A DNA stretch of 64,000 bases from Massalongia carnosa. Lineage: Eukaryota. The notes beneath the pieces were generated by a model. The model ran no database searches. It worked only from the letters and a program-made list of their open reading frames with translations, and was not told where the DNA came from. The position numbers were made by a program, and so were the translations under genes. Within the stretch, counting starts at the first letter, position 1. Each line of letters starts with the position of its first letter. Of this stretch, positions 28,130 through 61,336 are shown in pieces. Where the stretch lies: positions 124,001-188,000 of the forward strand of contig OZ287077.1 of NCBI GenBank assembly GCA_965645245.1. Reading direction: 5' to 3'.

Positions 28130-28283
28130 TGTAAAAGGCTACGAGACTAGCAAGCTAATCATGAGCGACTCTGATCTTCGAGGGAAATGCTCAGCGTGAG
28201 AGGTGGAAGATAGCTACTACGTGCTGGTCTCCGAGAGTATACGTGATCCAAATAACTAACGGATGTGGAAGTGCTTTGTCAAA
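28130..28283. repeat. partial LTR related to the 20193 copy, cut by copia B
   Basis: TGTAA start; shares ggaaatgctcagcgtgagaggtggaagatagctactacgtgct with the 20193 copy. Confidence 0.55.
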
Positions 28284-29691: not shown

Positions 29692-29826
29692 ATTCTAATT
29701 GCTCTATATATCTCCGGATTAGCACGATCCGGTGGTCGCAATAAGGGTGCTGCTTTTCACCGCTTTCGCCATCCAGCGTCATTTGGCCTTTCGTCGTTCA
29801 GGCCAAACTTCCTCATCGATTCTTCC

Positions 29827-37181: not shown

Positions 37182-37568
37182 TGTAGGGGGGTGGAGCGGT
37201 GATACTCTAAATTCAAATTGCTAGCGGTTCGGGAGTTGGTTCTTTTCGGCTGATACTCGGTAAAGGTAGCGGGGAAGTCAGGTGACAGTCTTTCTTTTAG
37301 CTTAGTTATAGATAGTTCTTTTCCTTTTGGAGCAAGCATGCTCGTAGCAATAGCTACACAACACATAGCATCAACACATACAGTTCACAGGTACGAGGCA
37401 TGAGGCACGAGGCATGAGGCACGAGGCATGAGGCACGAGGCGCGAGGCTTATAGTGATCAGTCTAGCTATTGTTCTTATTCTATTGTTCTGTTCTTCTCT
37501 TGTTTGTTTGTTCTCTTGCACTCCTAGCAGTAGTGGACCACGCACACCACCCAGTTCATCCTTCCACA
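37182..37568 (+). repeat. 5' LTR of D1 (387 bp)
   Basis: tgtagggggg...ccttccaca, with an internal GAGGCAY tandem array. Confidence 0.93.
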
Positions 37569-41165: not shown

Positions 41166-44100
41166 CTAGCCACCATGTGCAGAACAGGTCCATGGCTGGT
41201 AGCAGTAATAAAAACCTGGAGAGAGCGAAAGTGTCGAGTTTTAGGGTTGGACTATCGGAGAATAAATCTTCCATTCCATTTAACAGGCCCGGCCTATTAA
41301 ATCAAATAGCCCTAACTCCTACAGCGACTAGTGCGGAAGAGGCGGCGATGGACCACTATGTTCGCGCCTTCACACCGTCGCGTGCAATTGGCTCGGTCGG
41401 ACTTTCGGCTCTGAGGTTTTCTCGGAAATTCGACATGTACACGATCAATCAGAACAGGGTGTTCGGGCGACGGAGTAGTGTGAGAGTTGATACGGCATAC
41501 AAACGGAAGGCAGTCAAGGTTCGACCAGTGAATTCTGACCAGTCGGATGGCACCATACCTGGTGGAATAGCAGATTGGAAAGCGAAGGCGCTAGAGAAAG
41601 AGAGAGGCCTACCAAAGTCAGAAAAGTTCCCTGATTGGCTAATTCCAAAGTTCTCGACAATATTCAAAGGCTCACGATTGACACCGGAACGGCTGCAGCG
41701 AATGACAGTGGGCGACAGTATGACGTCTGCTGAGAAAGAAGTGTTGACCCAGATGTTATACAACCGAGAAGCAGCGCTGTCATGGGAGTTTTCCGAGATG
41801 GGCAGAGTCAAACCTGAGGTGTCTCCACCATGTAAAATCAACACTATTCCACATGAGGCATGGCAGACCCCATCATTCCCATTGCCAAGGGCCCTGGTAC
41901 CGATGGTGATAGAGATGCTGAAGGACCGACTGCAGCGAGGAACGTTGGAACCTTGTCATGGTCCCTATCGAAATCCATGGTTCATAGTGAAGAAGAAAGA
42001 GAAAAATAAGTACCGATTAATTAATGCGGCCCTAGACATGAACAAAGTGACCATCCGAGACGCAAATCTGCCACCTTCGGTAGACGAATTCTCAGAGGAC
42101 TTTGCTGGCTGCCACATCGCTTCCTTGATCGACTTGTTTTCAGGATATGACCAAATGGAACTCGATGTTCATAGTCGAGACATGACCGCCTTCATGACAC
42201 CAATAGGACTATTGCGAATGACATCTATACCAATGGGAGCTACCAATTCGGTTGCACAGTTCGTACGGGTAGTGACAAAGATACTGCAGGACCACATTCC
42301 GAACCGTGCTAAACCTTTCTTTGATGACATCGGAGTGAAGGGGCCGAAGACTGATTATGGTGGTGAAGAAGTGGCACCGGGCATCAGAAAGTACGTGCTT
42401 GAACATCTCATGTGGCTAGATGGGGTACTCGCGGACATAGAAAGGGCTGGATGCACTATCTCCGGAGAAAAGTCGCAATTTTGCATGGCCGGTCTGAAGA
42501 TAGTAGGATTTGTGACCGACTCCGATGGTAGACATCCGGACACCGCTAAGGTTATCAAAATTCTAGAGTGGCCGATATGCACCGACGCTTCTTCCGCTCG
42601 TGCTTTTATAGGTGTGTGTGTGTACTATCGCATATGGATATTGGACTTTGCCATTGTTGCTGAACCAATATATCGTCTGCTGAAGAAAGATGCTGCTTTT
42701 GTATGGGGCATGGAACAAACCGAGGCAATGGACTTGCTGAAGATAGCTCTGACATCTCCGCCAGCACTAAAGACCATTGACTATAGCGAGCTAGCTGGAC
42801 TTATCATATTGGCTGTGGATGCGAGTTTGAAAGGATGGGGCGCTGTACTGATGCAAATCTTTGATGGCAAGCGTCACCCCATTCGGTACGAAAGCGGAGT
42901 ATGGAGCGAGGTGGAACAGCGATATGATGCAACCAAGCGAGAGTGTCGAGGCGTTCTAAAGGCATTGAAAAAGACAAGGCACTGGCTATATGGAGTTCAC
43001 TTTGTGTTGGAGACAGACGCCAACGTCCTAGTGGCGCAATTGAATGGAGCTTGTACCGATTTGCCTGGTGCTCTGATAGTCCGATGGATAGCATGGATAC
43101 GACTGTTTGACTTCGAGGTCAAACATGTTGCTGGCCGAAAACATACGGCAGCAGATGGACTGTCTAGACGACCTCATACTGAGGAAGAAATTCGGGCCGA
43201 ACAGCAGGAGCAAGACATAGACGACTTCATAGATGCCGAACTGAATTCACTAAGGGCCTGTCCAATTTCCGTTAACTCCGCAGACGAGGTGCCAGACGAA
43301 AAAGTGCTAAAGGCCGGATATAGAGATAAGTCCGAGAGAATCGCTGCATTTCTAACATCACTACAAAAGCCGGTTGGACTAAACCGCAAAGAGTTTAGAG
43401 CGTTTAAGAGCGAGGCCTTGCGCTATCGAGTACAAGATGGCCATCTTTATAGACGAAACAGCAAGAACGTACCTTCCAGGAGAGTGATAGACTCCGATGA
43501 GCGGAAGTTGGAAATATTGAAACAGCTGCATGACGAAAGTGGACATAGAGGCAGAGAGGGCACATACAGACGCATAGCAGACAGGTACTGGTGGGAACAA
43601 TTGCACGATGATGTAAAAGGCTATGTTCGGTCCTGCGAGGAATGTCAGAAACGTGACCCCACTAGGCTCGAGGAAGCACTTCATCCGACATGGGTTACCT
43701 TCATGTGGCAGAAGGTTGGCTTAGACGTGGTCCACATGCCAGCTTGTCGAGGCAAGCACTATATTGTTATGGCCAGAGATGACTTTTCCGGATGGGTCGA
43801 GGGTAGAGCACTAGGAAAAGCTACCGCTCAGAATGTCGCGAGATTCTTGTGGGAAGATGTTATATGCAGACATGGGTGCTTCGGAAAACTGATTGTTGAT
43901 GGTGGACCAGAAAACAAAGATGCTGTTATCGAATTAGCAAATCGATATGGTATCAAAAGAGTAGTTGTTTCTGCCTATCATCCGCAAGCCAATGGCATGA
44001 TAGAACGGGGACATCGGCCAGTTGTTCAAGCATTATCCAAAATGACAAATGGAGGCATGGGCAAATGGGTTGATAATCTTCCTGCAGTACTATGGGCCGA

Positions 44101-44743
44101 CCGTACAACAGTTCGTGCTAGCACCGGCAACACACCTTTCTATCTGAATAGCGACAATGAGGCTGTTCTACCAATTGAACTGGAAATTCCAACATGGAGA
44201 ATATTACCATGGAATGAAGTTCATACAACAGACGAATTGCTAGCTATGCGTGCGAGACAAATACAGCGAAGGGACGAAGACATGGAAGAGACAGCTTTAT
44301 TCCTGCAAAGACAAAGAATGGAAGGCAAAGAGACCTTTGACCCTCTGAACAATCTGAGATCAATTGAACTCACCGAGGGTCAATTAATTCTTTTGCACAA
44401 CACTAAATTAGACAATCAGCACACAGGCAAACTAACGTTCAGGTGGTTGGGACCATATAAAATTCAACAAACAATTGTTGATAAGGGAACTTACAAACTA
44501 TGTGAACTAGACGGCACCCTATTAGCTGGAACCTTTGCAGGAAATCGACTGAAACCATTTCATGCTCGGCAAAATATTAACTTACCTCCGATAGAAGAAC
44601 CTGAGCAACATAATAGTCAGGGGCCGACTATAAACCATGGGGGGGACGAGGACGACCGACAATCCATGATTCCACCTGGCTGGCCAATGGCAGTAGTGAT
44701 TCCTAGCAGACGTGCTGATGCGATGGAGACGGTGGAAAATTGA
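41156..44743 (+). CDS. pol: D1 pol (RT-RNase H-integrase), intact, -1 frame
   Basis: 1188-aa ORF; DLFSGYDQ, FFDD, VDASLKGWG, H..H..C..C, YHPQANG, WLGPY; no chromodomain. Confidence 0.93.
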   Translation, partial: FKLASHHVQNRSMAGSSNKNLERAKVSSFRVGLSENKSSIPFNRPGLLNQIALTPTATSAEEAAMDHYVRAFTPSRAIGSVGLSALRFSRKFDMYTINQNRVFGRRSSVRVDTAYKRKAVKVRPVNSDQSDGTIPGGIADWKAKALEKERGLPKSEKFPDWLIPKFSTIFKGSRLTPERLQRMTVGDSMTSAEKEVLTQMLYNREAALSWEFSEMGRVKPEVSPPCKINTIPHEAWQTPSFPLPRALVPMVIEMLKDRLQRGTLEPCHGPYRNPWFIVKKKEKNKYRLINAALDMNKVTIRDANLPPSVDEFSEDFAGCHIASLIDLFSGYDQMELDVHSRDMTAFMTPIGLLRMTSIPMGATNSVAQFVRVVTKILQDHIPNRAKPFFDDIGVKGPKTDYGGEEVAPGIRKYVLEHLMWLDGVLADIERAGCTISGEKSQFCMAGLKIVGFVTDSDGRHPDTAKVIKILEWPICTDASSARAFIGVCVYYRIWILDFAIVAEPIYRLLKKDAAFVWGMEQTEAMDLLKIALTSPPALKTIDYSELAGLIILAVDASLKGWGAVLMQIFDGKRHPIRYESGVWSEVEQRYDATKRECRGVLKALKKTRHWLYGVHFVLETDANVLVAQLNGACTDLPGALIVRWIAWIRLFDFEVKHVAGRKHTAADGLSRRPHTEEEIRAEQQEQDIDDFIDAELNSLRACPISVNSADEVPDEKVLKAGYRDKSERIAAFLTSLQKPVGLNRKEFRAFKSEALRYRVQDGHLYRRNSKNVPSRRVIDSDERKLEILKQLHDESGHRGREGTYRRIADRYWWEQLHDDVKGYVRSCEECQKRDPTRLEEALHPTWVTFMWQKVGLDVVHMPACRGKHYIVMARDDFSGWVEGRALGKATAQNVARFLWEDVICRHGCFGKLIVDGGPENKDAVIELANRYGIKRVVVSAYHPQANGMIERGHRPVVQALSKMTNGGMGKWVDNLPAVLWADRTTVRASTGNTPFYLNSDNEAVLPIELEIPTWRILPWNEVHTTDELLAMRARQIQRRDEDMEETALFLQRQRMEGKETFDPLNNLRSIELTEGQLILLHNTKLDNQHTGKLTFRWLGPYKIQQTIVDKGTYKLCELDGTLLAGTFAGNRLKPFHARQNINLPPIEEPEQHNSQGPTINHGGDEDDRQSMIPPGWPMAVVIPSRRADAMETVEN

Positions 44744-45100
44744 CATATCCGACTACCTATATCGAACGAATTTCCTTAGTAAAATGCATATTGTCAGCGG
44801 AGGGAGCACACGAACCTTCGGAATAGTTTCATTTCACACTTACCAAAATTCACCGAAAACTTCACCAACCTTAGTCGAAATTGCCATCTTCCAAATCCTC
44901 ACCTCCATGTTTTACCTTTTCCATACTACCAGAACTCAGCAAATTATCTAGCTTTTACTACCTACCTGATCAGCACATATACTATCTTCCTATCAGCAAA
45001 CATCTCTGCTAAGCTCAACTTCTTATCTAAGCGAAAGTCAGCAAGCTACTCGATAACTTGGAACAATTTATCTTACCTTACTTGCCTTACATCTTTTGGC

Positions 45101-45616
45101 ATGTCTTTCCAATTAGTCATTGTCCTAGGAAATGACCGCTTCCACCGCATGACAGACGCACTAGCTTTTCTTGAGACATTGACCCCAGCAGACCGATACG
45201 AGGGACAGAGGACCATAGAATCGCAGCTAATAGAGTTCCAGCATATGCTAGGGGATAGCATAGTGGACTATTATGACTATGTCATACAGAATGATGCCTG
45301 GGCCTCGGTGATGAAAGAAGAAGAGTTCAAAGCTCAATAAGACGATGTAATTGAGGAGGTGGATATGGCCCAACTGTCACGGGCAGTTGGAGAATGGAGG
45401 AATCGAACACTCAAGGAGGCCACTATTATGTTTCAGCATGTGAAGAAAGCAGAGGAAGAGGACTTTGGGACTAGGTCATCTTTTCGGTTAAAGCGAGAGT
45501 CACATGGCAGGCCTATTCCTCACATCTCTGATGACATTGATACGACTCCGGGACCCGAGCTGGATGAGGAGGAGTTAGAGTTTGCTGAGGCCGGAATGAA
45601 GCGAACGGTGGAGTAG
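45101..45616 (+). pseudogene. D1 extra 3' ORF (ORF3), one premature TAA
   Basis: Collinear with the intact 171-aa ORF in D2. Confidence 0.65.
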
Positions 45617-45665
45617 GAACAGTGATAGGTGTCAGGGGTCGACACCTAAAGAGAGAGGGGAACTA

Positions 45666-46022
45666 TGTAGGGGGGTGGAGCGGTGATACTCTAAATTCAA
45701 ATTGCTAGCGGTTCGGGAGTTGGTTCTTTTCGGCTGATACTCGGTAAAGGTAGCGGGGAAGTCAGGTGACAGTCTTTCTTTTAGCTTAGTTATAGATAGT
45801 TCTTTTCCTTTTGGAGCAAGCATGCTCGTAGCAATAGCTACAACACATAGCATCAACACATACAGTTCACAGGCACGAGGCATCAGGCACGAGGCGCGAG
45901 GGTTACAGTGATCAGTCTAGCTATTGTTCTTATTCTATTGTTCTGTTCTTCTCTAGTTTGTTTGTTCTCTTGCACTCCTAGCAGTAGTGGACCACGCACA
46001 CAACCCAGTTCATCCTTCCACA
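45666..46022 (+). repeat. 3' LTR of D1 (357 bp)
   Basis: Direct repeat of 37182-37568 with indels and substitutions. Confidence 0.93.
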
Positions 46023-48340
46023 ACGGCGCCAGCGAGGTGCAGATCGCTGTGTTTCCGCCAACCTTAGAAATAGAAGCAATACGAGGTCACATGAACTAGG
46101 ACGAGAACAACAATTATCAGAAATCAAACCGTATTATTTATACTGGAATCGGAAGGAACCACATCTCGATGCTGTAAATCTCTTGTGTAGATGGCTGTAT
46201 CATACTGAGATAAAAAAAGGTTTTATTTTTCGTCGATTCGATCAGTATGATAGAGTGGATAAAGCAAGCCGACCTATGGTGAGTATGCTTGATAGTTCTT
46301 GTTTTCAAAGTTCTCTTTTTAAATGAGCTCTTAGACCTCGTCCACGTTTTTAGAGAATTTTCGCAACAATCTTGCCGACATAGGAATAGATCCAGCTCCT
46401 TATGGTACTCATTAATTTCGAAGATGAGGTGTACAATATCTTTCGAGTGAAAACCGATTGAACATACGCAAATTATGTGATTGTGGTGGATGGTCTCAAA
46501 GTTATGATACTTTGACAATCGTTCGTTATTTAATGAATTGGAATGACGATCCTATAAGACGACGAGATGATTTCATGAATCCGGAAGCGCAGATCGGAGT
46601 TAAATGTTCTTATTGTGGTCGAGCTTGCGGTTTTGCATAAAGAACTCATTAAATACTAGTTCATGAGCTCGAATAATGAAAACCAGGAGGATGATTTCAA
46701 TCTAATCTATAATGATAAAAAGTTAAGAGCTCATTTAACTAAACTCTTCTCACCCGAAATCCTACTCCTCATCATCATCCTCCCCCCTCACTCCTCTCCT
46801 CCTCCTCACCTTCCTCCTCTATCATCTCCTAATCCTCATTGAAAGGATCGGACGACACTTCCTCAAAAAGTGGATTATCACATTCGCCCAGTTTAGTCAA
46901 AAGATCGACAGCAGCATCCGTCCTTTCGCCTCTACTAGCAACCTAAATTCGGTTATAACGAAGTTCGTTTATAATGAGCATGTTCGGTTGATTTACTTTT
47001 CTATAAGACCATTTACCCAGTATGGCCTCAAAAAGACGAACACAATGCTCTCGTCGACCTCCAAGAGTTAACTCCTCTTGCGCCACATTCTATAAACATT
47101 AAATATTAGGTCGAGCTTATATAAAACGAGTATAAATTAACAATTTTACTTTGGTTTTGGCATTTCAAAAGATTTGCTTCTCGAACATCTATTGTTCGAG
47201 CATAGACGCACTATAAGCACATCCGCACGGCAAGAGATTAACCTTGTCTAAACCCAACGGAATATTCTCGCCCTTAGGCATCTCCTGCATTCGTTTTAAA
47301 CGAGCTTATCAGTAACAGATATCATCATTTATAACTAGCTCATACCTTTTGTGACCGATAACATCCATGACATCGGGCATAGCCCGGATTCTGTCTCCAG
47401 AATTTCGCTCGTAGCCCTTCTTCGCCCTCGGTTTCTTCTGGTTTTGCCCCAGGACCCCAACGTGTCTTATAAGCATTTATTCGTCTTCATTAATAACGAG
47501 TCAGTTGAAAACGAGCTCAGTTCATATAATAATACATACTTCTTTTTCTGCAGGCTTCTTGTGTTTCGCTTGTTCGAGCTCTATTTATTTTTCTGTTTTC
47601 GATAACCGCAGAATTATATTGTCAGGCGATTAGGGGTCACATGACCCGCCATGGGTCACACGACCCACTAACCCCTATTAGATATATCCCTCAGTAAGCT
47701 AGCCTAGATCTCCTATAGATCAATACACACCACTGCTTTTTATCTATATTCCACATTAGCCTATACAGCTTAATAGTTATGAGCCCGGTGAGCATAGAAG
47801 CTTCAAATTACTACTCATCAATCTAGTTGAATAAAACCCTCTTCCCAAAACGATCCAACAAAACGATCAAAATGGAGGAGACCAATAAATTAACGATAAT
47901 CGCCCTAACTCCTAAGAATTATCATCTATGGATTAGGGAATTACAAGGAATATCGGAGGAAGCGAAGGTATTGTAATAAGTGGACCCTAATGGTTCAAAC
48001 CCGGAGCCCGAAGAGGGAGAATATCCGGAAGTTTCAAAATATCAAGTCCCTATTCAAGCACAGCCAGCAGGTAGAATTGCTTACCCCATTATAGAAGGTG
48101 GAGTTATAATAGCCACGAAATCGACTGAGAAATAGGGTGATTTATCGGCTGAGTAAAAGGAGGACTATAAAATGGAGATATCAGCCTATAATATGAAGGA
48201 AAAACAGGTGGAGAAGGTTGCCCAAGGACTCAGAATAGTGGACAATGCACTAAAGAGCTCCGCACGAGTATACATCCCCCCCAATAAAATAGCTTCATCG
48301 GTTAGGGAAATAGTGAAAATTCTGGCTGCAAGATATTAGC

Positions 48341-48513
48341 TGTGAGGGATAAAACGAGTTCAATTTCAATAGCCTAGTTCTACACCAAAATCTTCAGACG
48401 AAGTCTAAAAGCTTTACTCGGGCGGAGTTCTATATAACCCCTGAAAAGTCGCTTCCTCGGCACATTACCTAATCGATGCTAGTCTGATGTCAGGTGACCT
48501 CAGGACCCTGACA
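48341..48513 (-). repeat. 3' LTR of E
   Basis: tgtgaggg...ccctgaca. Confidence 0.97.
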
Positions 48514-51500
48514 CTACCCCTCCTCTGAGACGGCGGCTCCGGACGTCGATGGTTGACTGTTATTCATGAATAGGACATCCTTTGGGGCGTTGGGTTTTCC
48601 TTTATTGTCTGTATGAAATTTTCTGATTTCTTCTTTGGCGCGAATGAAATCAGTCCATGGCTGCCAAGGTGGGTTTGCGTTCCAGTCATCCCATGAGCCG
48701 ATATAGGTTGCTTTATACTGAGTGCCGTATTTCTTAGTTTCACGGCAGTCGACGATTTCGAGGACTTCATATTCTTCATGAGGACTGGATTCGGCGTCTT
48801 CTTGAATCAGTATCGGGGGACCCGGTTCAATAAGTTGACCGGGGAATGGGTTCGTAGGAGCCAGATGAAGTTTCCATGGATGAAATATGGGTGTGAGCCC
48901 CACTCTTTTCAAGTGTTCGGGAATTTCCAATTCATAGGCCTTGTTATCTATGTTTCGGATGATTTTCCATGGCCCCGCGTTTTTGGAACTCAGGGAGCGA
49001 CTCTGCTTGTCGACGGAGAAATCTTTGGTGTTGACATATACCATGTCTCCTATCTTGTAGTCTGGATGTGGGGCCCGCGACTCATTGGCATATCTCATCT
49101 GATCTGCCTGTGCCCAGGTTAGGTGCTCGATAAGCCATTTGGTCATGGCTTCTTGTCGGGCGGTTATTTTGTCTGCCGACATCAGTTCCGCGCGTCCGGT
49201 GACATTTGAGTCAAAAGGCTGAAGCGGCTCCGAGCCACTACGAGGGTGATAACCGTGATCAGCGAAGAAGGGGGACATTCCGGTTGAAGCGTTCGTATGA
49301 TTATTGACTGCAAATTCGGCATCTGGTAAGTAGTCCACCCAGTCGTCTTGAGCATGTCTGACGTATGCTCTCAGGTAGTTCTTCATAACCTTATTCGCAT
49401 TTTCGGTTTGACCATCTGTTTCTGGATGATGCGCGGAGGACGGTTTCGATTTGACTCCTAATCGCTGACAAATTCGCTTCCACAGATGGGCTGTCAATTG
49501 CGTCCCGCGATCGTGGACGATGGAGTTTGGCAAGCCGTATGTTGAAAAGACCCGACGTTTGAGGACTTCTAGTACGTCCTTCGTGCCTATATCCACCATA
49601 GGTTCGTACAACCTACGTTTGGTCAATCTGTCCACGATAACCAAGATATTTTCGTACGTCCGGCCCCGTCTGTGACATTTGGGCAGTTTGACTACAAAGT
49701 CCAGAGATAAGTCTGTCCATTTTCTTTGAGGTATGGGTAGTGGGGCTAATAGGCCCTGTTTCTGATCGTTGTACGCCTTGGACCTTCGGCATGTAGAGCA
49801 GTTAGTAGCGTATCTTCGACAATCATCCTTCATGGACATCCAGAAATAGTTCTCCAGCATTTTGGCATACATGCCTCGATACCCGGGGTGTCCTTGCATC
49901 GGGGGATTATGATGATCCGATAAAAGACGCAGCTTCAGCTTGTCGAAATTCGGAATGAAGAGGCGTGTTTTGTAGTATAGTCTTTCGTGACGGACTTCCA
50001 AGTCACCCATCGCCAGTCTCAGCCCGTTGCTTAGAATTTTATCGGGCAATTTCTTCAGATTTTCCAACTTAGCCTTCATGACTTCCTGAATCATTGCGTC
50101 TTCTTGATATGCCTCCGCTAAAAGATTTTCTAATAATTCATCAGGCTTTTCTGCATCCGAATCATCATTCGAATTGATTGTGAACTCCTCTACCGTCAAG
50201 TCCTCTACTTCCTCATCCCTGATTTGATCGGATGAGTCAGTAGTAATGTTGTCTTCAACCCGTTCTCGATTGGCCATGGATCTGGTTGTCACGTACAGCT
50301 TCAGGTCCTGTTTCACTTCATCGTCCAGCTGATTTTCTTTTAGCAGCACCTGATATTGATATCTGGTGCGATCATCCTCCGCGTCCATCGGCAGATCTTG
50401 CTCTCTTCTGGTGAGGGCGTCCGGTTTGCCCCCTTGCTTGCCTGGTCTATACATAATGCGAAAATTATATTCCGCCAGCATCTCAGCCCAACGCACTTGA
50501 CGGCGATTTAGTTGTTTCAAAGTCATGAAGGTCTCCAGATTCTTATGATCTGAGTAGACCTTTGTTGATTGCTCCACTCCCGCTAGCTCCGGTCTCCAGA
50601 TGACGAAACTTTCTACGATGGCTAGGAGTTCTTTATCGTAGATCTCATAATTGCATTCGGCGGGGCTCATCTTCTTCGAGAAATAAGCCACGGGTTTCAG
50701 AACGCCTTCATGCATCTGAGAGAGTATCCCCGATACTACGAAGTCAGATGCGTCTGTCTCCACCCAGGTCTCTAGCCTTGGGTCGTAATGAGCAAGAATC
50801 GGCGCAGAGGTAAAAGAAATCTTCATGTCTTCGAAAGCTTGCTGACATTCAGTGGTCCACACGAAGTCTTGATACTTGGTGCGTCTCTTTCCGCCTTTCG
50901 TGACATATTGCTCTCCGCGGGTTAGCTCGGTCAGACACTTCACCTTTTCGGAGAATCGCTCAATGAAGCGACGATAGAAGTTAGCGAATCCAAGAAAGGA
51001 CTGCACCTCTTTTACTGACGCGGGCGTCTTCCATTCTAGTATGGCCGTCACCTTTTCTGGGTCCATTCTAACGCCATTCACCCCCACGAACATTCCGAGG
51101 TACTTGACTTCGGAGACAGAGAATTCACACTTGTCTATGTCTAGTTGAAGTCCTCTTTCTTTCAGACGACGAAGTACCTTCAGTACCTGCTCGATGTGCT
51201 CCGTTTCTGTTTCACTGAACACCAGTACGTCGTCCAGATAGGCGGTGACGAAATAATCTAAGTATTCTCGCAGGGAGTTATTGATATAGCTCTGAAATGT
51301 TGATGGAGCGTTGCATAGTCCGAAGGGCATCACAAGATATTCAAATTGACCGTATCGAGTATTGAACGCCGTGAGCCACTCTTGTCCCTCTTTAATCCTC
51401 ATCCTATTGAATGCATGAATGACGTCCAATTTAGTAAACCACTTTGCTTTGGCGAGTTTCGCCAATGTCTCGCTGATCAATGGAATGGGGTATCGACTTT

Positions 51501-52584
51501 TCTCCGTGATATTATTCAGATCTCGATAATCTACGCAAAAGCGAAGACCCCCGCCTGGTTTCCTGACCAATAGTACCGGCGCGGCCGCCTTTGACGAGCT
51601 CGGACGAATAAACCCTTTTGCTAAGTGCTCATCTAGATATTTTCTTACCGCGGTCAATTCCTGTTCGGACATGGGCCGATAATTCTTGATGAACGGGGGC
51701 TCGATCCCGGGCATCAAATTGATTTCGTGATCCTCTTTTCGATGAGGTGCCAACTCGTCTGCCTTAGCCCTCATGAAGACTTCAATCTCGCCATGATAGG
51801 CCTCGGGTACTCGTTTTTTCAATTCTTCCAGAGTATATTCGACTTTGTCTTTCATGAACTTCTCATGATCGTCGCTGGTGACTGCGTTGATACTTGAAGC
51901 AGTCAGAAGCTTCTTCTCGTACCTATCTAACTTCTTGTTGAGCTTTTCCCTCGGATAGAAACAGTAAGTCTGATGACCCGATCTTCGAAGAAGTTTCATA
52001 AATCGCTTCGGGGTGAGGGACTGAATATCGAAATTTTCAAAGGCCTCGTTCTTTGCTGAGGCAGTCGTTTCCTTCTCCAAGATTGTGGATTCAAATTTTG
52101 AGACTGAATGAGATCGAGGTGCGCATCCCTTACTGACGCACCGATTGGAGAACGTCATGGTGCGTTCAACCCAATCAATGTGAGGGTTATGCTCCTGCAG
52201 CCATCCATCACCGATGATCAAGGTATGATTACCTATGTCGGCCAGATAGCAGAATAACTTTTCCTCATGATCTCCGATTCTGACGGGAACGATAACGGCC
52301 TTATCAATGATTTGATGGACTTTTCCATCCCCAAGTTCCAGTCTGACCCTGTCTCTTTTTTTTAGTCTAATGGTCTCTAGTTTTCTTTTGCGCGCAAAGG
52401 ATTCATGAAGAAATTGAGCTTCACTTCCGTTATCGATCATCAACTGATTTTCATTAGAGGCTATACTACATCTAAATAAAAGATGCTTGCCCGGAACGAG
52501 ATGATCGACAGAAAGAACAGATGCTCTAACAACCCTTAATGAAACTTCTCGACATTCCTGATGGCGACTATCATCAGGAATCAT
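48514..52584 (-). CDS. pol: E Pol: protease, RT, RNase H, integrase, chromodomain (1356 aa)
   Basis: MIDNGSE, YLDD, ETDAS, HPETDGQTE, AGPW, EYEVLEIVD; the stop codon abuts the LTR. Confidence 0.96.
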   Translation of the reverse strand: MIPDDSRHQECREVSLRVVRASVLSVDHLVPGKHLLFRCSIASNENQLMIDNGSEAQFLHESFARKRKLETIRLKKRDRVRLELGDGKVHQIIDKAVIVPVRIGDHEEKLFCYLADIGNHTLIIGDGWLQEHNPHIDWVERTMTFSNRCVSKGCAPRSHSVSKFESTILEKETTASAKNEAFENFDIQSLTPKRFMKLLRRSGHQTYCFYPREKLNKKLDRYEKKLLTASSINAVTSDDHEKFMKDKVEYTLEELKKRVPEAYHGEIEVFMRAKADELAPHRKEDHEINLMPGIEPPFIKNYRPMSEQELTAVRKYLDEHLAKGFIRPSSSKAAAPVLLVRKPGGGLRFCVDYRDLNNITEKSRYPIPLISETLAKLAKAKWFTKLDVIHAFNRMRIKEGQEWLTAFNTRYGQFEYLVMPFGLCNAPSTFQSYINNSLREYLDYFVTAYLDDVLVFSETETEHIEQVLKVLRRLKERGLQLDIDKCEFSVSEVKYLGMFVGVNGVRMDPEKVTAILEWKTPASVKEVQSFLGFANFYRRFIERFSEKVKCLTELTRGEQYVTKGGKRRTKYQDFVWTTECQQAFEDMKISFTSAPILAHYDPRLETWVETDASDFVVSGILSQMHEGVLKPVAYFSKKMSPAECNYEIYDKELLAIVESFVIWRPELAGVEQSTKVYSDHKNLETFMTLKQLNRRQVRWAEMLAEYNFRIMYRPGKQGGKPDALTRREQDLPMDAEDDRTRYQYQVLLKENQLDDEVKQDLKLYVTTRSMANRERVEDNITTDSSDQIRDEEVEDLTVEEFTINSNDDSDAEKPDELLENLLAEAYQEDAMIQEVMKAKLENLKKLPDKILSNGLRLAMGDLEVRHERLYYKTRLFIPNFDKLKLRLLSDHHNPPMQGHPGYRGMYAKMLENYFWMSMKDDCRRYATNCSTCRRSKAYNDQKQGLLAPLPIPQRKWTDLSLDFVVKLPKCHRRGRTYENILVIVDRLTKRRLYEPMVDIGTKDVLEVLKRRVFSTYGLPNSIVHDRGTQLTAHLWKRICQRLGVKSKPSSAHHPETDGQTENANKVMKNYLRAYVRHAQDDWVDYLPDAEFAVNNHTNASTGMSPFFADHGYHPRSGSEPLQPFDSNVTGRAELMSADKITARQEAMTKWLIEHLTWAQADQMRYANESRAPHPDYKIGDMVYVNTKDFSVDKQSRSLSSKNAGPWKIIRNIDNKAYELEIPEHLKRVGLTPIFHPWKLHLAPTNPFPGQLIEPGPPILIQEDAESSPHEEYEVLEIVDCRETKKYGTQYKATYIGSWDDWNANPPWQPWTDFIRAKEEIRKFHTDNKGKPNAPKDVLFMNNSQPSTSGAAVSEEG

Positions 52585-54173
52585 TCTTTTTCCGAGTCAT
52601 CGGACTCGGATGAGTCTTCTCGAATGGCGACTCTACTGAGATTCACTGCTTGCCTAATGCAACAGGGGTCTCGGCCCCTATGCCCTGATCCTCTGCACGA
52701 CCAACATCGGCCCTGTCGTGACAGAGTCTCTCGTTCCCCGTCCTCCAACTTGGGCGGGTGAAGCGTCCCCTCGTACCAAGCTCCTACCCATCCTTCCGGT
52801 TTGGTCGAGACCTGTCCGAATTTCGAGTTCGGGTTGGCGGAGATGGCGGAGTTGGTCGTAGTCGCTTTTGGTTTGACTGTGATCGAGGTACTGGAGGTGG
52901 CGGTCGTGATTTTGTTTAAACCACGACCGACGGAAGAAGAAGGAGAAGTCGTCGTTTTCGCGGGCTTCTGAGATTCCGACTTCGCGTACTTCTGATTCAT
53001 CTCCTTTCTTCCCTGTTCGATTTTCCTGGCTTCATGCAAGAGGGTTTCTAGACTGATGAAGTCCCGTCCCAATAGAGACAGCGCGATGTTCGGCCGCAGG
53101 GTGTCCTTGAACGTCTCAATTCTCTCATCCGCGGGGGTTTTTGCACGTTGCCAGAGTTTGAACATTCGATGATAGTATTCAGTCACCGTTTCATCTTTGT
53201 TCATGCTTATTTCTTTCAATTCCTTCTTCGCGTCCTTTGTCAAATATGCTATCCCGAGATAGCTCTCAATTTCCTTGAAGAACGTATTCAAAGAGAGAGT
53301 GGGACCGGCATCCACTACCCAGGTGTGTATGGCGTCGAAAATGGGATCCTTCATCTGCGATAAGGCGTAGTCGATTTTCAACTCCTCACTAGTGTACATT
53401 GGGGAGTCGGTTCTGATTTTTCTTTCCACCGTAAACGCCCATGCACTATAGGCGTCTGAGTTGGAACCGTCGAGGGCCTCCTTCGGGTTGGTGCCTTTGG
53501 GTCGATAATTGCTTAAGGGGGCAGCGACGGCGGATTGATCTTCAGTTTGACCAGTCGATGAGGTCGACGTCTGAGTAGCTTCGCGAGCTAGACGTTTCAT
53601 CTCTGATATTTCACGAATGAGGTCCGAGTTTTCCGCTTTGACCTTCTGAGTCTCCAATTTTTCAGCCGCGATATCCTCCTCAAATACTAGTCTCTCGTGA
53701 TCCCAGCTCTTTATCATTCGGGTCCATTCTGCCTGTAGACCTTTTAGATCTTTGTTTCTTTTTTTCAAGTCCTGATATTTCTCGATCAAAACCTCATGTT
53801 GTAGGAGCGTGCCGGCTAGAACAGTGTACCATATGTCGCCGTCTCCCTTTAGGACGAGGGCCCTTCTCAACTCTTCTCGATTGGCCACCTTGATGATCAT
53901 AGCTGATTTCGACGGATTGCTTTCCGTCAGACTTCGATAAATGGCATAATTGCTTATGTCGATTTTCGGTTCTGAGGTCGGGGCCTCGATCTTCGGTTCC
54001 CTGCCTTTGTCTTTGTTTGTCGGCAAAACAGTGTCATTTTCCACCTCTTCGTCGGCGGGTTCATATTCGCCTGGTATGCTCTGTGTCGATTGTCGCGACA
54101 TGGAGCGAGCTCTAGTGTTGAAGGCCGGCCCCGAGGGAGCGACATCTCTGCTGGATGATTCTAATGAGTTCAT
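52581..54173 (-). CDS. gag: E Gag (530 aa)
   Basis: Coiled coil, capsid region, CWSCRGSGH knuckle. Confidence 0.93.
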   Translation of the reverse strand: MNSLESSSRDVAPSGPAFNTRARSMSRQSTQSIPGEYEPADEEVENDTVLPTNKDKGREPKIEAPTSEPKIDISNYAIYRSLTESNPSKSAMIIKVANREELRRALVLKGDGDIWYTVLAGTLLQHEVLIEKYQDLKKRNKDLKGLQAEWTRMIKSWDHERLVFEEDIAAEKLETQKVKAENSDLIREISEMKRLAREATQTSTSSTGQTEDQSAVAAPLSNYRPKGTNPKEALDGSNSDAYSAWAFTVERKIRTDSPMYTSEELKIDYALSQMKDPIFDAIHTWVVDAGPTLSLNTFFKEIESYLGIAYLTKDAKKELKEISMNKDETVTEYYHRMFKLWQRAKTPADERIETFKDTLRPNIALSLLGRDFISLETLLHEARKIEQGRKEMNQKYAKSESQKPAKTTTSPSSSVGRGLNKITTATSSTSITVKPKATTTNSAISANPNSKFGQVSTKPEGWVGAWYEGTLHPPKLEDGERETLSRQGRCWSCRGSGHRGRDPCCIRQAVNLSRVAIREDSSESDDSEKE

Positions 54174-54206
54174 GTTTTCTGATTAGCCTAATGATTCTGA
54201 TTGTAG

Positions 54207-54217
54207 GTCTGAAGATT
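54207..54217 (-). promoter_or_regulatory. self-priming PBS (11 nt) of E
   Basis: AATCTTCAGAC (-) is perfectly complementary to LTR positions 54267-54277. Confidence 0.85.
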
Positions 54218-54218
54218 G

Positions 54219-54391
54219 TGTGAGGGATAAAACGAGTTCAATTTCAATAGCCTAGTTCTACACCAAAATCTTCAGACGAAGTCTAAAAGCTTTACTCGGG
54301 CGGAGTTCTATATAACCCCTGAAAAGTCGCTTCCTCGGCACATTACCTAATCGATGCTAGTCTGATGTCAGGTGACCTCAGGACCCTGACA
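54219..54391 (-). repeat. 5' LTR of E
   Basis: Reads identical to 48341-48513; TATA-like TATATAGAA near 54307-54315. Confidence 0.97.
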
Positions 54392-56477
54392 TTAGCGGTC
54401 AGATAACCAAGTCATAGAGCAATTGCATGAGCAATTTCTAGCCCTAAAAACCCCGCCCATTAAAGGTAAAATAGAGGCATGGGTAGCTAATTGGGAGAAT
54501 ATTAAGGGACAAATTGTTGAGCTCAATATAACGGGCCTATTTGGCTCCGAGACCATATTCATCAATGAATTTCTCCAATCAGGGAAGAAATGGACGCCCA
54601 ATCTCTGTAATAACTGGGTAATGCAGCATAGGGCTGCTAAGACGACGGTTGAATTTTACGAGACAACCAGGGAATATCGTTTAGCCGTGGAATAATTCCT
54701 GAATGAGGCAAAATCAACGTCTAGAAATCAAGCTAATGCAGCCTCGCTGCAGGGCCCAATGCAAGACGAAAATAAAGGTCCGGGGCCTAGCCAATCAAGT
54801 CAATGGAATGGCCAATCAAAAGAGGCCAGATTCAAGGATAGAAAGTGCGTATGTGGGAAAATACACCTGTTTAGGCTATATCTATATATCGTCAAATCAG
54901 CTCGCCCCCCTGCATGGAAGGAAGATAAAACCATACGCAATGAAATGCGTCAGAAAATTCAGTCAAAAATTCGGTTTTTCATGGCTATTAAGAAGGTCAC
55001 CGACACCAACGTACTAGACGGAATAGCTGAGGAGTCAGTCAAAAAGAGCTCCCAAAAAGCAGAGAATGAGCAACATAATCAGGGTAATCACATTGAATTG
55101 CCTGGTCAATCCTTCTCGTTTACGAACGTTATATCTAGGGCAAATAACCCCTTGCATAAAAGCGTCATATTTGAGTCCGGATGCGATAACCCTCTGACCT
55201 ATGATAAATCACGGTTTATAGGAGAAATAACCCCAACTTCGTCAGACATGTGGGTAGACACCCCCGACGGGGAGATGAAAATCCATGGTCATGGCACAAT
55301 GAGGGTAAATGGCCTATTAAATGGCCAGAAAAGGGAGCTATTATTCGAAGAAACAGCTTATATTCCTGATTCATCAGTGACGTTGGTTTCGGCCAATAAG
55401 TTGAAAAAACGAGACTTTTTCTGGGATATGTTCACTGATACCCTTATAGTTAATGAGACAGGGCAACAAATATGTGAAATAAAGGAGCACTATAGGCTCT
55501 CAATCATAGAATATAACCCTGAATCTATAGATATAGGGTTTGCTAACTCAGTGCAGCCACGCGATACGTCAGAAGCAACTCAATGGAAATGGCATCTTCG
55601 GTCAGGTCATTGCCGGCCAGAGGTGATTGACAAGCTAAAGAAGATCGATGAAGTGACAGTTTCAAAAGGCGTAGGGGGTGACAACGCACCTAGGACTATT
55701 CAATGCGAAACGTGTGCAGTCTCCAAGTTGCATAGATTCATCAATAAAGCTCCGTCAGGGCGTGCCATTAAGCCATATCAGGTGCTTCATTTTGACCTAA
55801 CAATCAATGATAAGGGGTTCGATAAAACGAGCTGTAAAGCTTATTTTACGGACGAAATTACCTCATATGTATGGGTTTATCCATTGAATGATCATAAGGA
55901 AAAGACCTTATTGCCCATCTTCAAAAGTTTGATCAATCAATGCGATAGGGTTGGCATTTCCATTAATTCAATTGTAACCACGATTCGCACGGGGCAAGAA
56001 AAATCAGTAGGAAAAGCCCTAGAAGCATGGATCAGTCAACAAGGTATAGGATAGTCATGGTCAGCAAAGAATACCCCTGAGCAAAATGGCGTTTCGGAGC
56101 GTTTCGGAGCCATATTAACTGAAAAAGCTCGATACATAAGGGAATATACAAAAAATGCCAGAAGACCTGTATCCGGAGTGCTATTTAGCTGCAGCCTATC
56201 TAATGAATCGAATCTCCAATAAAGCTCTGGAATGGGACTCCTCATTGGTCAAATTGTAGAAACTGACTAATACGGGTCAATCAGTCAGATACGAGCTGGC
56301 TCATCTAAAAGTGTTTGGTTGCAAGGCGTATCCATTGTTAAAAGGGGCCGATGCTCCTCACAAAAGCAATAAGTTGAAACCTAGGGCATTTGTTGGCTAT
56401 TTAGTTGGCTATGATTCAACAAATATCTTCAGGATATGGAATCCAGAAAAGGGAGATGTCAGCGGTTATAGAGACGT

Positions 56478-56827
56478 TGTGGAAGGATGAACTGGGTGGT
56501 GTGCGTGGTCCACTACTGCTAGGAGTGCAAGAGAACAAACAAACAAGAGAAGAACAGAACAATAGAATAAGGACAATAGCTAGATTGGTCTCTGTATGCC
56601 TCGTGCCTCGTGCCTCGTGCCTGTGAACTGTATGTGTTGATGCTATGTGTTGTAGCTATTGCTACGAGCATGCTTGCTCTAAAAGGAAAAGAACTATCTA
56701 TAACTAAAATAAAAGAAAGACTGTCACCTGACTTCCCCTCTACCTTTACCGAGTATCAGCCGAAAAGAACCAACTCCCGAACCGCTAGCAATTTGAATTT
56801 AGAGTATCACCGCTCCACCCCCCTACA
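56478..56827 (-). repeat. 3' LTR of D2 (350 bp)
   Basis: Reverse-complement homologue of the D1 LTRs. Confidence 0.93.
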
Positions 56828-56876
56828 TAGTTCCCCTCTCTCTTTAGGTGTCGACCCCTGACACCTATCACTGTTC

Positions 56877-57392
56877 CTACTCCAGTGTTCGCTTCATTCC
56901 GGCCTCAGCAAACACTAACTCCTCCTCATCCAGCTCGGGTCCCGGAGTCGTATCAATGTCATCAGAGATGTGAGGAATAGGCCTGCCATGTGACTCTCGC
57001 TTTAACCGAAAAGATGACCTAGTCCCAAAGTCCTCTTCCTCTGCTTTCTTCACATGCTGAAACATAATAATGGCCTCCTTTAGTGTCCGATTCCTCCATT
57101 CTCCAACTGTCCGTGACAGTTGGGCCATATCCACCTCCTCAATAACATCTTCTCGTTGAGCTTTGAACTCTTCTTCTTTCATCACCGAGGCCCAGGCATC
57201 ATTCTGTATGACATAGTCATAATAGTCCACTATGCTATCCCCTAGCATATGTTGGAACTCTATTAGCTGCGATTCTATGGTCCTCTGTCCCTCGTATCGG
57301 TCTGCTGGGGTCAATGTCTCAAGAAAAGCTAGTGCGTCTGTCATGCGGTGGAAGCGGTCATTTCCTAGGACAATGACTAATTGGAAAGACAT
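56877..57392 (-). CDS. D2 extra 3' ORF3, 171 aa, unknown function
   Basis: ATG-initiated, same sense as pol, lies between pol and the PPT; acidic and predicted by eye to be helical. Confidence 0.65.
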   Translation of the reverse strand: MSFQLVIVLGNDRFHRMTDALAFLETLTPADRYEGQRTIESQLIEFQHMLGDSIVDYYDYVIQNDAWASVMKEEEFKAQREDVIEEVDMAQLSRTVGEWRNRTLKEAIIMFQHVKKAEEEDFGTRSSFRLKRESHGRPIPHISDDIDTTPGPELDEEELVFAEAGMKRTLE

Positions 57393-57749
57393 GCCAAAAG
57401 ATGTAAGGCAAGTAAGGTAAGATAAATTGTTCCAAGTTATCGAGTAGCTTGCTGACTTTCGCTTAGATAAGAAGTTGAGCTTAGCAGAGATGTTTGCTGA
57501 TAGGAAGATAGTATATGTGCTGATCAGGTAGGTAGTAAAAGCTAGATAATTTGCTGAGTTCTGGTAGTATGGAAAAGGTAAAACATGGAGGTGAGGATTC
57601 GGAAGATGGCAATTTCGACTAAGGTTGGTGAAGTTTTCGGTGAATTTTGGTAAGTGTGAAATGAAACTATTCCGAAGGTTCGTGTGCTTCCTCCGCTGAC
57701 AATATGCATTTTACTAAGGAAATTCGTTCGATATAGGTAGTCGGATATG

Positions 57750-60700
57750 TCAATTTTCCACCGTCTCCATCGCATCAGCACGTCTGCTAGGAATCACTAC
57801 TGCCATTGGCCAGCCAGGTGGAATCATGGACTGTCGGTCGTCCTCGTCCCCCCCATGGTTTATAGTCGGCCCCTGACTATTATGTTGCTCAGGTTCTTCT
57901 ATCGGAGGTAAGTTAATATTTTGCCGAGCATGAAATGGTTTCAGTCGATTTCCTGCAAAGGTTCCAGCTAATAGGGTGCCGTCTAGTTCACATAGTTTGT
58001 AAGTTCCCTTATCAACAATTGTTTGTTGAATTTTATATGGTCCCAACCACCTGAACGTTAGTTTGCCTGTGTGCTGATTGTCTAATTTAGTGTCGTGCAA
58101 AAGAATTAATTGACCCTCGGTGAGTTCAATTGATCTCAGATTGTTCAGAGTGTCAAAGGTCTCTTTGCCTTCCATTCTTTGTCTTTGCAGGAATAAAGCT
58201 GTCTCTTCCATGTCTTCATCCCTTCGCTGTATTTGTCTCGCACGCATAGCTAGCAATTCGTCTGTTGTATGAACTTCATTCCATGGTAATATTCTCCATG
58301 TTGGAATTTCCAGTTCAATTGGTAGAACAGCCTCATTGCCGCTATTCAGATAGAAAGGTGTGTTGCCGGTGCTAGCACGAACTGTTGTACGGTCGGCCCA
58401 TAGTACTGCAGGAAGATTATCAACCCATTTGCCCATGCCTCCATTTGTCATTTTGGATAATGCTTGAACAACTGGCCGATGTCCCCGTTCTATCATGCCA
58501 TTGGCTTGCGGATGATAGGCAGAAACAACTACTCTTTTGATACCATATCGATTTGCTAATTCGATAACAGCATCTTTGTTTTCTGGTCCACCATCAACAA
58601 TCAGTTTTCCGAAGCACCCATGTCTGCATATAACATCTTCCCACAAGAATCTCGCGACATTCTGAGCGTAGCTTTTCCTAGTGCTCTACCCTCGACCCAT
58701 CCGGAAAAGTCATCTCTGGCCATAACAATATAGTGCTTGCCTCGACAAGCTGGCATGTGGACCACGTCTAAGCCAACCTTCTGCCACATGAAGGTAACCC
58801 ATGTCGGATGAAGTGCTTCCTCGAGCCTAGTGGGGTCACGTTTCTGACATTCCTCGCAGGACCGAACATAGCCTTTTACATCATCGTGCAATTGTTCCCA
58901 CCAGTACCTGTCTGCTATGCGTCTGTATGTGCCCTCTCTGCCTCTATGTCCACTTTCGTCATGCAGCTGTTTCAATATTTCCAACTTCCGCTCATCGGAG
59001 TCTATCACTCTCCTGGAAGGTACGTTCTTGCTGTTTCGTCTATAAAGATGGCCATCTTGTACTCGATAGCGCAAGGCCTCGCTCTTAAACGCTCTAAACT
59101 CTTTGCGGTTTAGTCCAACCGGCTTTTGTAGTGATGTTAGAAATGCAGCGATTCTCTCGGACTTATCTCTATATCCGGCCTTTAGCACTTTTTCGTCTGG
59201 CACCTCGTCTGCGGAGTTAACGGAAATTGGACAGGCCCTTAGTGAATTCAGTTCGGCATCTATGAAGTCGTCTATGTCTTGCTCCTGCTGTTCGGCCCGA
59301 ATTTCTTCCTCAGTATGAGGTCGTCTAGACAGTCCATCTGCTGCCGTATGTTTTCGGCCAGCAACATGTTTGACCTCGAAGTCAAACAGTCGTATCCATG
59401 CTATCCATCGGACTATCAGAGCACCAGGCAAATCGGTACAAGCTCCATTCAATTGCGCCACTAGGACGTTGGCGTCTGTCTCCAACACAAAGTGAACTCC
59501 ATATAGCCAGTGCCTTGTCTTTTTCAATGCCTTTAGAACGCCTCGACACTCTCGCTTGGTTGCATCATATCGCTGTTCCACCTCGCTCCATACTCCGCTT
59601 TCGTACCGAATGGGGTGACGCTTGCCATCAAAGATTTGCATCAGTACAGCGCCCCATCCTTTCAAACTCGCATCCACAGCCAATATGATAAGTCCAGCTA
59701 GCTCGCTATAGTCAATGGTCTTTAGTGCTGGCGGAGATGTCAGAGCTATCTTCAGCAAGTCCATTGCCTCGGTTTGTTCCATGCCCCATACAAAAGCAGC
59801 ATCTTTCTTCAGCAGACGATATATTGGTTCAGCAACAATGGCAAAGTCCAATATCCATATGCGATAGTACACACACACACCTATAAAAGCACGAGCGGAA
59901 GAAGCGTCGGTGCATATCGGCCACTCTAGAATTTTGATAACCTTAGCGGTGTCCGGATGTCTACCATCGGAGTCGGTCACAAATCCTACTATCTTCAGAC
60001 CGGCCATGCAAAATTGCGACTTTTCTCCGGAGATAGTGCATCCAGCCCTTTCTATGTCCGCGAGTACCCCATCTAGCCACATGAGATGTTCAAGCACGTA
60101 CTTTCTGATGCCCGGTGCCACTTCTTCACCACCATAATCAGTCTTCGGCCCCTTCACTCCGATGTCATCAAAGAAAGGTTTAGCACGGTTCGGAATGTGG
60201 TCCTGCAGTATCTTTGTCACTACCCGTACGAACTGTGCAACCGAATTGGTAGCTCCCATTGGTATAGATGTCATTCGCAATAGTCCTATTGGTGTCATGA
60301 AGGCGGTCATGTCTCGACTATGAACATCGAGTTCCATTTGGTCATATCCTGAAAACAAGTCGATCAAGGAAGCGATGTGGCAGCCAGCAAAGTCCTCTGA
60401 GAATTCGTCTACCGAAGGTGGCAGATTTGCGTCTCGGATGGTCACTTTGTTCATGTCTAGGGCCGCATTAATTAATCGGTACTTATTTTTCTCTTTCTTC
60501 TTCACTATGAACCATGGATTTCGATAGGGACCATGACAAGGTTCCAACGTTCCTCGCTGCAGTCGGTCCTTCAGCATCTCTATCACCATCGGTACCAGGG
60601 CCCTTGGCAATGGGAATGATGGGGTCTGCCATGCCTCATGTGGAATAGTGTTGATTTTACATGGTGGAGACACCTCAGGTTTGACTCTGCCCATCTCGGA

Positions 60701-61336
60701 AAACTCCCATGACAGCGCTGCTTCTCGGTTGTATAACATCTGGGTCAACACTTCTTTCTCAGCAGACGTCATACTGTCGCCCACTGTCATTCGCTGCAGC
60801 CGTTCCGGTGTCAATCGTGAGCCTTTGAATATTGTCGAGAACTTTGGAATTAGCCAATCAGGGAACTTTTCTGACTTTGGTAGGCCTCTCTCTTTCTCTA
60901 GCGCCTTCGCTTTCCAATCTGCTATTCCACCAGGTATGGTGCCATCCGACTGGTCAGAATTCACTGGTCGAACCTTGACTGCCTTCCGTTTGTATGCCGT
61001 ATCAACTCTCACACTACTCCGTCGCCCGAACACCCTGTTCTGATTGATCGTGTACATGTCGAATTTCCGAGAAAACCTCAGAGCCGAAAGTCCGACCGAG
61101 CCAATTGCACGCGACGGTGTGAAGGCGCGAACATAGTGGTCCATCGCCGCCTCTTCCGCACTAGTCGCTGTAGGAGTTAGGGCTATTTGATTTAATAGGC
61201 CGGGCCTGTTAAATGGAATGGAAGATTTATTCTCCGATAGTCCAACCCTAAAACTCGACACTTTCGCTCTCTCCAGGTTTTTATTACTGCTACCAGCCAT
61301 GGACCTGTTCTGCACATGGTGGCTAGCTAGTTTAAA
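57750..61336 (-). pseudogene. pol: D2 pol with a 1-bp deletion in integrase (near 58668)
   Basis: ORFs 58601-61315 and 57750-58646; gctaccgctcag in D1 vs gctacgctcag in D2. Confidence 0.93.

Follow-up and report, generated by a model that had tools for sequence, protein, structure and literature searches.

A short open frame behind pol in a fungal Ty3/gypsy family appears to unite the two ends of a long PhyH-like dioxygenase family

What is encoded between pol and the polypurine tract of a fungal Ty3/gypsy element, in the place where other retroelements keep an env gene? The window analysed here, by which we mean the whole stretch of 64,000 nucleotides, holds two copies of one Ty3/gypsy family, family D: D1 on the plus strand and D2 on the minus strand. 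In both, an additional frame, which we call ORF3, follows pol in the sense orientation. A preliminary description had read it as a real accessory protein, for example one acting in silencing evasion, and had pointed to several silent differences between the copies. We find instead that ORF3 is, as judged from alignments, the two ends of a much longer protein whose catalytic centre is missing.

By self-BLAST, D1 and D2 are 99.4% identical across 7,534 aligned bases. The family is ordered as LTR (TG...CA), primer-binding site, a leader (about 1.2 kb) that contains tandem repeats, gag-like ORF, protease ORF, pol, spacer, ORF3, polypurine tract and 3' LTR; the coordinates of these features are collected in Table 1. 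A Pfam scan of pol recovered reverse transcriptase, RNase H and the integrase zinc and core domains and gave no chromodomain match, in agreement with the first assignment to the chromodomain-less gypsy elements. The copy with an open pol, D1, carries the broken ORF3, and the copy with an intact ORF3, D2, carries a frameshifted pol. Across the aligned segments (38492-46025 against 64000-56475) the copies differ in 45 columns, whose spacing is very uneven: none falls within 39028-43824 (4.8 kb), about 30 fall within the last 2 kb and five within the first 540 bases. Counted by feature, ORF3 has 12 differences, the spacer two, and the LTR 13 plus a 7-base indel. Because the differences are spread so unevenly, D1 and D2 look like mosaics of two family sub-lineages, which suggests recombination or gene conversion between these. 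The two LTRs of D1 are unequal (387 and 357 bases) because they hold different numbers of a 15-base tandem repeat, and the five bases on its two flanks (37177-37181 and 46023-46027) mismatch, so that a target-site duplication is not evident. D1 may be the product of recombination between two insertions.

Table 1. Coordinates in the window of family D features and of the parts of ORF3.
Feature	Position	Strand	Basis or remark
D1 5' LTR	37182-37568	+	self-BLAST
D1 protease ORF	39885-41165	+	ORF reading
D1 pol	41177-44743	+	single open frame, 1188 aa; RT, RNase H, integrase
D1 spacer, pol stop to ORF3 ATG	44744-45100	+	357 nt; counterpart of the D2 spacer
D1 ORF3	45101-45616	+	TAA at 45338-45340 (codon 80) splits it into 79 aa + 85 aa; the 79-aa product is P0123
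D1 polypurine tract	about 45648-45662	+	read directly from sequence
D1 3' LTR	45666-46022	+	self-BLAST, sequence
D2, whole copy	56478 to past window end	-	alignment with D1
D2 3' LTR	56478-56827	-	self-BLAST, sequence; run X6 and X7 contigs diverge from the window at 56478
D2 polypurine tract	56831-56845	-	mapped via D1/D2 alignment
D2 ORF3	56877-57392	-	intact, 171 aa + stop, ATG start; exact product in the 22-member protein cluster
ORF3 residues 91-171, putative C-terminal tail of long family	56880-57122	-	blastp, A3
Approximate deletion junction, codons 90/91	57105-57140	-	located from protein alignment, good to a few codons only
ORF3 residues 1-90, putative N-terminal domain of long family	57123-57392	-	hhalign, blastp, A3
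D2 spacer, pol stop to ORF3 ATG	57393-57749	-	357 nt, 39% G+C
D2 pol	57750-61315	-	frame broken near 58669, where D2 lacks 1 base of D1

The window is a nest of transposons. A second gypsy element, bearing a chromodomain, occupies 48341-54391 on the minus strand; both gag (530 aa) and pol (1356 aa) are open in it, and its 173-base LTRs (48341-48513 and 54219-54391) are 100% identical, which suggests that it inserted very recently. A pair of 486-base direct repeats with 99.4% identity (29207-29692 and 35376-35861) probably represents the LTRs of a third element, and a weaker repeat pair lies at 20193-20341 and 28130-28277. Between the chromodomain-bearing element and the end of D2, at 54423-56054 on the plus strand, are ORFs of 90, 104 and 431 aa, the last of which reads like a gag or pre-integrase piece of another retroelement.

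ORF3 lies on the sense strand within the element, beginning 357 nt past the pol stop and ending about 32 nt ahead of the polypurine tract. The placement first given for it, its integrity in D2 and its interruption by the change from CGA to TAA in D1 are all correct. The two copies of the frame differ by 12 bases in 11 codons. Five of these codons are silent (Q47, V83, R102, L104 and T169), five are missense (D81E, A95T, T108I, E160V and V170L) and one is nonsense (CGA in D2 vs TAA in D1), the last accounting for two of the differing bases; the observation that several differences are silent or conservative, as in D81E and V170L, thus holds. Codon 80 encodes W in most relatives, R in D2 and a stop in D1, and several mutational paths between these states are equally short. 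The predicted product is acidic (pI 4.7; 36 D+E vs 20 K+R), has no cysteine and one N-x-S/T sequon, and contains no membrane segment, the top 19-residue Kyte-Doolittle mean being 0.61, all of which fits the initial judgement that it is not a classical Env. Reading the 357-nt spacer for a splice acceptor or internal promoter revealed a pyrimidine-rich run ahead of the ATG and no convincing signal. On the opposite strand, an 83-codon ORF that overlaps the polypurine tract and the first part of the 3' LTR is uninterrupted in D1 and D2 alike (45632-45883 minus and 56610-56861 plus) and is probably a chance frame.

If ORF3 itself were a chance open frame in the non-coding DNA of the element, then its lack of any Pfam match at E <= 1 and the absence of anything usable from an ESM Atlas feature search would be as expected. 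However, when the 922-nt post-pol region was shuffled 5000 times with its dinucleotides preserved, a sense ATG-ORF of at least 171 codons arose in 0 cases (mean 52, maximum 163). The remaining five frames of the stretch hold 6-17 stops each. The shuffles, together with the significant homology of both ends of ORF3 to a conserved protein family described below, refute this explanation, to which we give virtually no credence.

A phmmer search with ORF3 over 1.84 billion representative proteins returned 18 matches at E <= 0.001. The long proteins among them, P0020 (819 aa, E 5.4e-15), P0024 (911 aa) and P0030 (880 aa), each aligned with ORF3 over two separate stretches. By blastp, residues 1-94 of ORF3 align with residues 1-95 of P0020 (E 1e-14) and residues 94-145 with residues 759-810 of the same protein (E 4.7e-10), and the tail of ORF3 aligns with residues 222-307 of P0019 (E 1.9e-25). 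Comparison of the short with the long family by hhalign covered the N-terminal 90 columns with a probability of 98.1% (E 1.4e-13). In a joint alignment of 33 short and long sequences (A3), the ORF3 row divides into residues 1-90 and 91-171, which stand about 930 columns apart; its start methionine aligns with the starts of P0020, P0022 and P0023, and near its C-terminus it has in common with several long members a short acidic motif. The counterpart of P0020 residues 92-755, about 660 residues, is absent from ORF3, and tblastn with the long proteins found no further match anywhere in the window; likewise, 107 retrieved proteins compared with the window matched nothing outside ORF3. On the strength of these alignments, we conclude that ORF3 is the N-terminal domain of a family of 820-950 aa proteins, joined in frame to the C-terminal tail of that family, with the core deleted.

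What, then, is the long parent? The 820-950 aa proteins come from Pezizomycotina, with Coccidioides posadasii, Penicillium crustosum, Xylona heveae and Venustampulla echinocandica as named sources, and a word-indexed search with P0020 yielded 31 relatives of 471-1143 aa. The relatives are annotated as 'hypothetical' but for one UniRef name, 'Phytanoyl-CoA dioxygenase', and the source name of one further fragment falls in the phytanoyl-CoA dioxygenase family. The long proteins are built from an N-terminal domain of about 90 residues, a Cys-containing middle region, a PhyH-like core and a helical acidic C-terminal tail; N-terminal domain, middle region and tail have no Pfam family, and conservation is good in the centre and the C-terminal two thirds. 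Four of 20 long members matched the PhyH profile (PF05721) at E <= 0.01, the best of them at 1.2e-5, as did 6 of the 33 rows of A3 at E <= 1. Language-model features of P0020 residues 470-745 stood at 0.96 to PhyH clusters, with 26 of 30 matches in that set. H550, D552, H650 and R660 (P0020 numbering) are invariant in all 20 of 20 long members, a pattern, H-x-D...H...R, that we take to be the iron triad and the 2-oxoglutarate-binding residue of Fe(II)/2-oxoglutarate dioxygenases. A sequence search of the PDB with the long-family profile gave low-complexity matches only (best E 0.025). Beyond the fungi, scanning with the long-family alignment produced 53 pattern matches in prokaryote genome contigs and 23 in viral contigs, none of which was confirmed in either set. 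Judged by its conserved residues and profile matches, the centre of the long family is a PhyH-like Fe(II)/2-oxoglutarate dioxygenase and would have the corresponding jelly-roll fold. All four invariant residues lie within the part deleted from ORF3, and as it has no catalytic core, the short form cannot be an enzyme.

The idea of an accessory protein thus survives in part: ORF3 is a genuine, family-wide ORF derived from a conserved family, but its 171 residues are not a complete protein, since the catalytic core has been deleted. Nothing supports silencing evasion in the short form. As a role for the long parent enzyme, it would be a reasonable idea by analogy only.

With a shallow alignment, composed of near-identical sequences only, AlphaFold2 modelled ORF3 at a pLDDT of 43.6. 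With the deep 33-row alignment, the mean pLDDT rose to 88.3, with residues 1-140 mostly above 90, and the pTM was 0.59. The model consists of a beta hairpin (7-14), helices at 17-24 and 29-63 and a long helix (73-125) that is continuous across the deletion junction; after this come a short helix, an acidic stretch (about 134-155) that is disordered and, at the end, a helix of weak prediction. At this pTM the predicted geometry between the two halves is less certain. A fold search of 48,161 solved chains with the model returned generic long-helix matches, with a best Z of 6.7 and none at Z >= 8. Structure prediction, which had been put forward at the outset as a way into the function of the protein, thus delivered a confident helical model when the alignment was deep and no informative fold match. 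A stable folded mini-protein is possible on this evidence; the model means that the fusion could fold, and is no demonstration of any activity.

Copies of ORF3 beyond the window bear on whether the short form is kept. Clustering at 90% identity places the exact D2 product among 22 distinct sequences, which share a single source and lie on contigs of 0.6-3.8 Mb. The corresponding cluster for the protease ORF has 24 members, which indicates that ORF3 accompanies practically every family copy. Sixteen of the 22 ORF3 members were inspected, of which eight are full length (seven of 171 aa and one of 170 aa) and eight shortened. Among the shortened are 79-aa products ending at codon 80, in three different versions (P0123, which is D1, P0011 and P0012) on contigs of 2,300,223, 2,077,076 and 3,628,741 bases. 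The lineage with this stop has therefore multiplied, being present at at least three loci on different contigs, from which it follows that an intact ORF3 is not required in cis. An older short-form copy, P0002, is 79% identical and spans the junction, so the short form outlasted the latest burst of a family whose copies are 98-100% alike.

We also compared the locus with contigs from four sequencing runs (X6-X9), selected for divergence but found to hold near-identical copies, which have a depth of about 2 and no joints and are silent on expression or splicing. ORF3 is intact in the X6 and X8 contigs. Relative to the window, X6 shows 21 mismatched letters and 9 gapped ones across 3,023 bases, and X8 shows 3 mismatched letters across 1,085 bases; coverage in X7 and X9 is limited to the LTR or a piece of pol. 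The element is present in runs from seven studies whose labels name six different organisms and a lichen metagenome, and the two runs that cover ORF3, X6 and X8, are more than 99% identical to the window over 56475-59500. A near-identical element across such labels could be one fungus variously labelled, very close species, or transfer.

To the differences between D1 and D2 we added a third ORF3 copy, a single X6 contig that spans the stretch. The X6 copy differs from D2 at seven positions in ORF3; over 1,750 bases of pol, the differences amount to 2 substitutions and 2 indels. Across the three copies, 7 of 16 variable sites in ORF3 are synonymous, where random placement of the same mutation types predicts 29% (P = 0.15). 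The synonymous excess is not above chance, and the silent differences are no sign of selection. Nominally dN/dS is about 0.3-0.4, a value with little power behind it at 16 sites. Weak purifying selection on ORF3 could thus go unseen. Between copies of a family this young, most differences stem from post-insertion decay and have no power to show constraint. Copy-to-copy differences in pol look near neutral too, the five substitutions between D1 and D2 giving three amino-acid changes. That an ORF of a young transposon family is open, multi-copy and variable at silent sites is no evidence that it functions.

Is the long gene itself mobile, and was it carried by gypsy elements? In Coccidioides posadasii there are five paralogues more than 90% identical to one another, on five scaffolds of one strain (P0042 and P0098-P0101). 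One assembly of Penicillium crustosum has at least three long members (P0085, P0086 and P0088), likewise more than 90% identical, another has many partial copies on contigs of 1.4-3.3 kb, and one long-family protein is identical on three contigs. The closest relatives of ORF3 are P0018, which is 52% identical over the N-terminal part and runs on into long-form sequence, and P0019, 47% identical over the tail, with long-form core before it. Both are fragments of the long form and are rich in I, N and K, as are the products that repeat-induced point mutation yields. Because the long form is multi-copy within genomes and is accompanied by AT-biased fragments that look repeat-mutated, it is probably carried by a mobile element, and the paralogue sets of C. 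posadasii and P. crustosum are probably transposon cargo annotated as host genes. Many long members lie on contigs of 10.5-12.8 kb, which is about the size of the 8.8 kb element with a further 2 kb or so. Other long members sit on large scaffolds and are apparently ordinary annotated genes, as in Venustampulla (1.6 Mb scaffold).

As to the linkage with pol, a search for fusions of pol with the long form scored 7,988 candidates and recovered no matching protein longer than 1434 aa, a null result that is weak evidence. Scanning metagenome contigs with the short-family alignment gave 586 pattern matches, of which 0 were confirmed; scanning them with pol gave nine short loci of 41-51% identity, none extending past pol residue 991. 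ORF3 keeps both exact ends of the long protein, lies in the sense orientation and occupies the usual slot for an extra ORF, and on these grounds we infer that the long gene stands behind pol in relatives of family D.

We consider it probable that ORF3 is an internally deleted, dispensable relic with little or no expression. An ancestor of family D would have carried the full-length gene as an accessory ORF, placed after pol and ahead of the polypurine tract. About 660 codons would then have been lost in frame, perhaps in the course of replication if, for instance, reverse transcriptase switched templates, and the loss would have united the N-terminal domain with the tail and removed all catalytic residues. 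That about half of the distinct variants inspected still have the short form open would reflect the youth of the family and not demonstrable selection. Several observations run contrary to this account: dN/dS is nominally low, the deletion is in frame and the fusion could fold stably, an older short copy exists, ORF3 has not been lost from the family (22 vs 24), eight of 16 inspected members are full length, and no protein fusing pol with the long form came to light. If ORF3 instead functions without catalysis, as a stable helical module of N-terminal domain and C-terminal helix that serves as adaptor or dominant-negative regulator of the long-form enzymes or of a host factor bound by the parent protein, then copies with stops would be complemented in trans. 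The preservation of start and stop around an in-frame deletion, the confident model with its helix unbroken over the junction, a dN/dS nominally below one, the persistence of P0002, the near-equal numbers of ORF3 and protease variants and the intact copies in X6 and X8 would all be in keeping with such a role. The synonymous excess is not significant, however, and copies that stop at codon 80 occupy at least three loci. The high pLDDT comes from covariation within each half among the long proteins, which says little on the fusion; the pTM is only 0.59, and the fold search was uninformative (0 of 48,161 chains at Z 8). Nor is there an evident route for translating a fourth ORF that begins 357 nt past pol. 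We therefore regard a non-catalytic function as doubtful.

Whether the long gene ever belonged to a gypsy element is a separate question from whether ORF3 is a relic or a functional mini-protein. The long family could be a host gene, or a gene of some other mobile element, of which family D captured a rearranged mRNA fragment by transduction or template switching, never having had it as an accessory gene. No protein fusing pol with the long form was found, the retrieved proteins match only ORF3 in the window, some long members appear to be ordinary genes on large scaffolds, and the nine metagenome pol relatives are too short to show the sequence after pol, all of which leaves room for capture. 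Against this, the exact ends, sense orientation and standard slot of ORF3 are more easily explained by deletion within a resident gene than by the capture of two pieces, and the long form is multi-copy and dispersed, with fragments that look repeat-mutated and with many members on contigs about the size of an element bearing the full gene. On balance, capture seems to us rather unlikely. The most far-reaching combination would have the long parent be an undescribed accessory dioxygenase of fungal Ty3/gypsy elements, possibly undoing a silencing mark on nucleic acid or chromatin, and at the same time the 171-aa form be a selected, non-catalytic mini-protein of its two end modules, perhaps a regulator or dominant-negative partner; that both should hold, we find clearly improbable. 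The short ORF is modest in itself, and its parent family is the worthwhile lead. Through the link to ORF3, several 'hypothetical proteins' of fungi are explained as probable transposon cargo.

Plant Ty3/gypsy elements are well known to bear additional ORFs behind pol. ORF3 sits, in the sense orientation, where the env genes of retroviruses and errantiviruses and the env-like ORFs of plant Ty3/gypsy elements sit, after pol and before the polypurine tract; it differs from Env in having, by hydropathy, neither a signal-peptide-like nor a membrane segment, in lacking cysteine and in being acidic and, by prediction, all-helical and soluble. Compared with PF05721 (PhyH), the long relatives share in their central domain the invariant H-x-D...H...R and weak PhyH matches, and they add the N-terminal domain, middle region and tail, whereas ORF3 has no such domain. 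In the accessible text of the open literature, including surveys of fungal LTR elements and of Coccidioides transposons, we found no PhyH-like ORF described for a fungal LTR retrotransposon; this scope takes in neither Repbase nor subscription journals.

Among fungal elements, DNA transposons carry genes for TET/JBP dioxygenases, according to the accessible part of PMC12730594. Like the long family, these are multi-copy Fe(II)/2-oxoglutarate dioxygenase genes on mobile elements, and they are thought to act on an epigenetic mark; unlike it, they belong to Class II elements and to another dioxygenase family, a comparison made here by description (PMC12730594). The extra ORFs of LTR retrotransposons described in the text available to us are mostly from plants, and the well-studied dioxygenase case is that of orchids. 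As reported in the available portion of PMC9289625, Ty3/gypsy elements of Phalaenopsis carry an additional ORF with an ALKBH5-like 2-oxoglutarate/Fe(II) dioxygenase domain that is active in vitro. There too, an extra ORF of the Fe(II)/2-oxoglutarate dioxygenase superfamily has been kept through rounds of replication; the orchid gene is a plant member of the AlkB family that keeps its H-x-D...H, whereas family D is fungal, derives from a PhyH-like protein whose core it has lost, and would have the long form among its gypsy relatives (PMC9289625). If the long PhyH-like gene is indeed gypsy cargo across Pezizomycotina, it would be the fungal counterpart of the orchid enzyme, a retroelement oxygenase that could bear on how such elements withstand genome defence.
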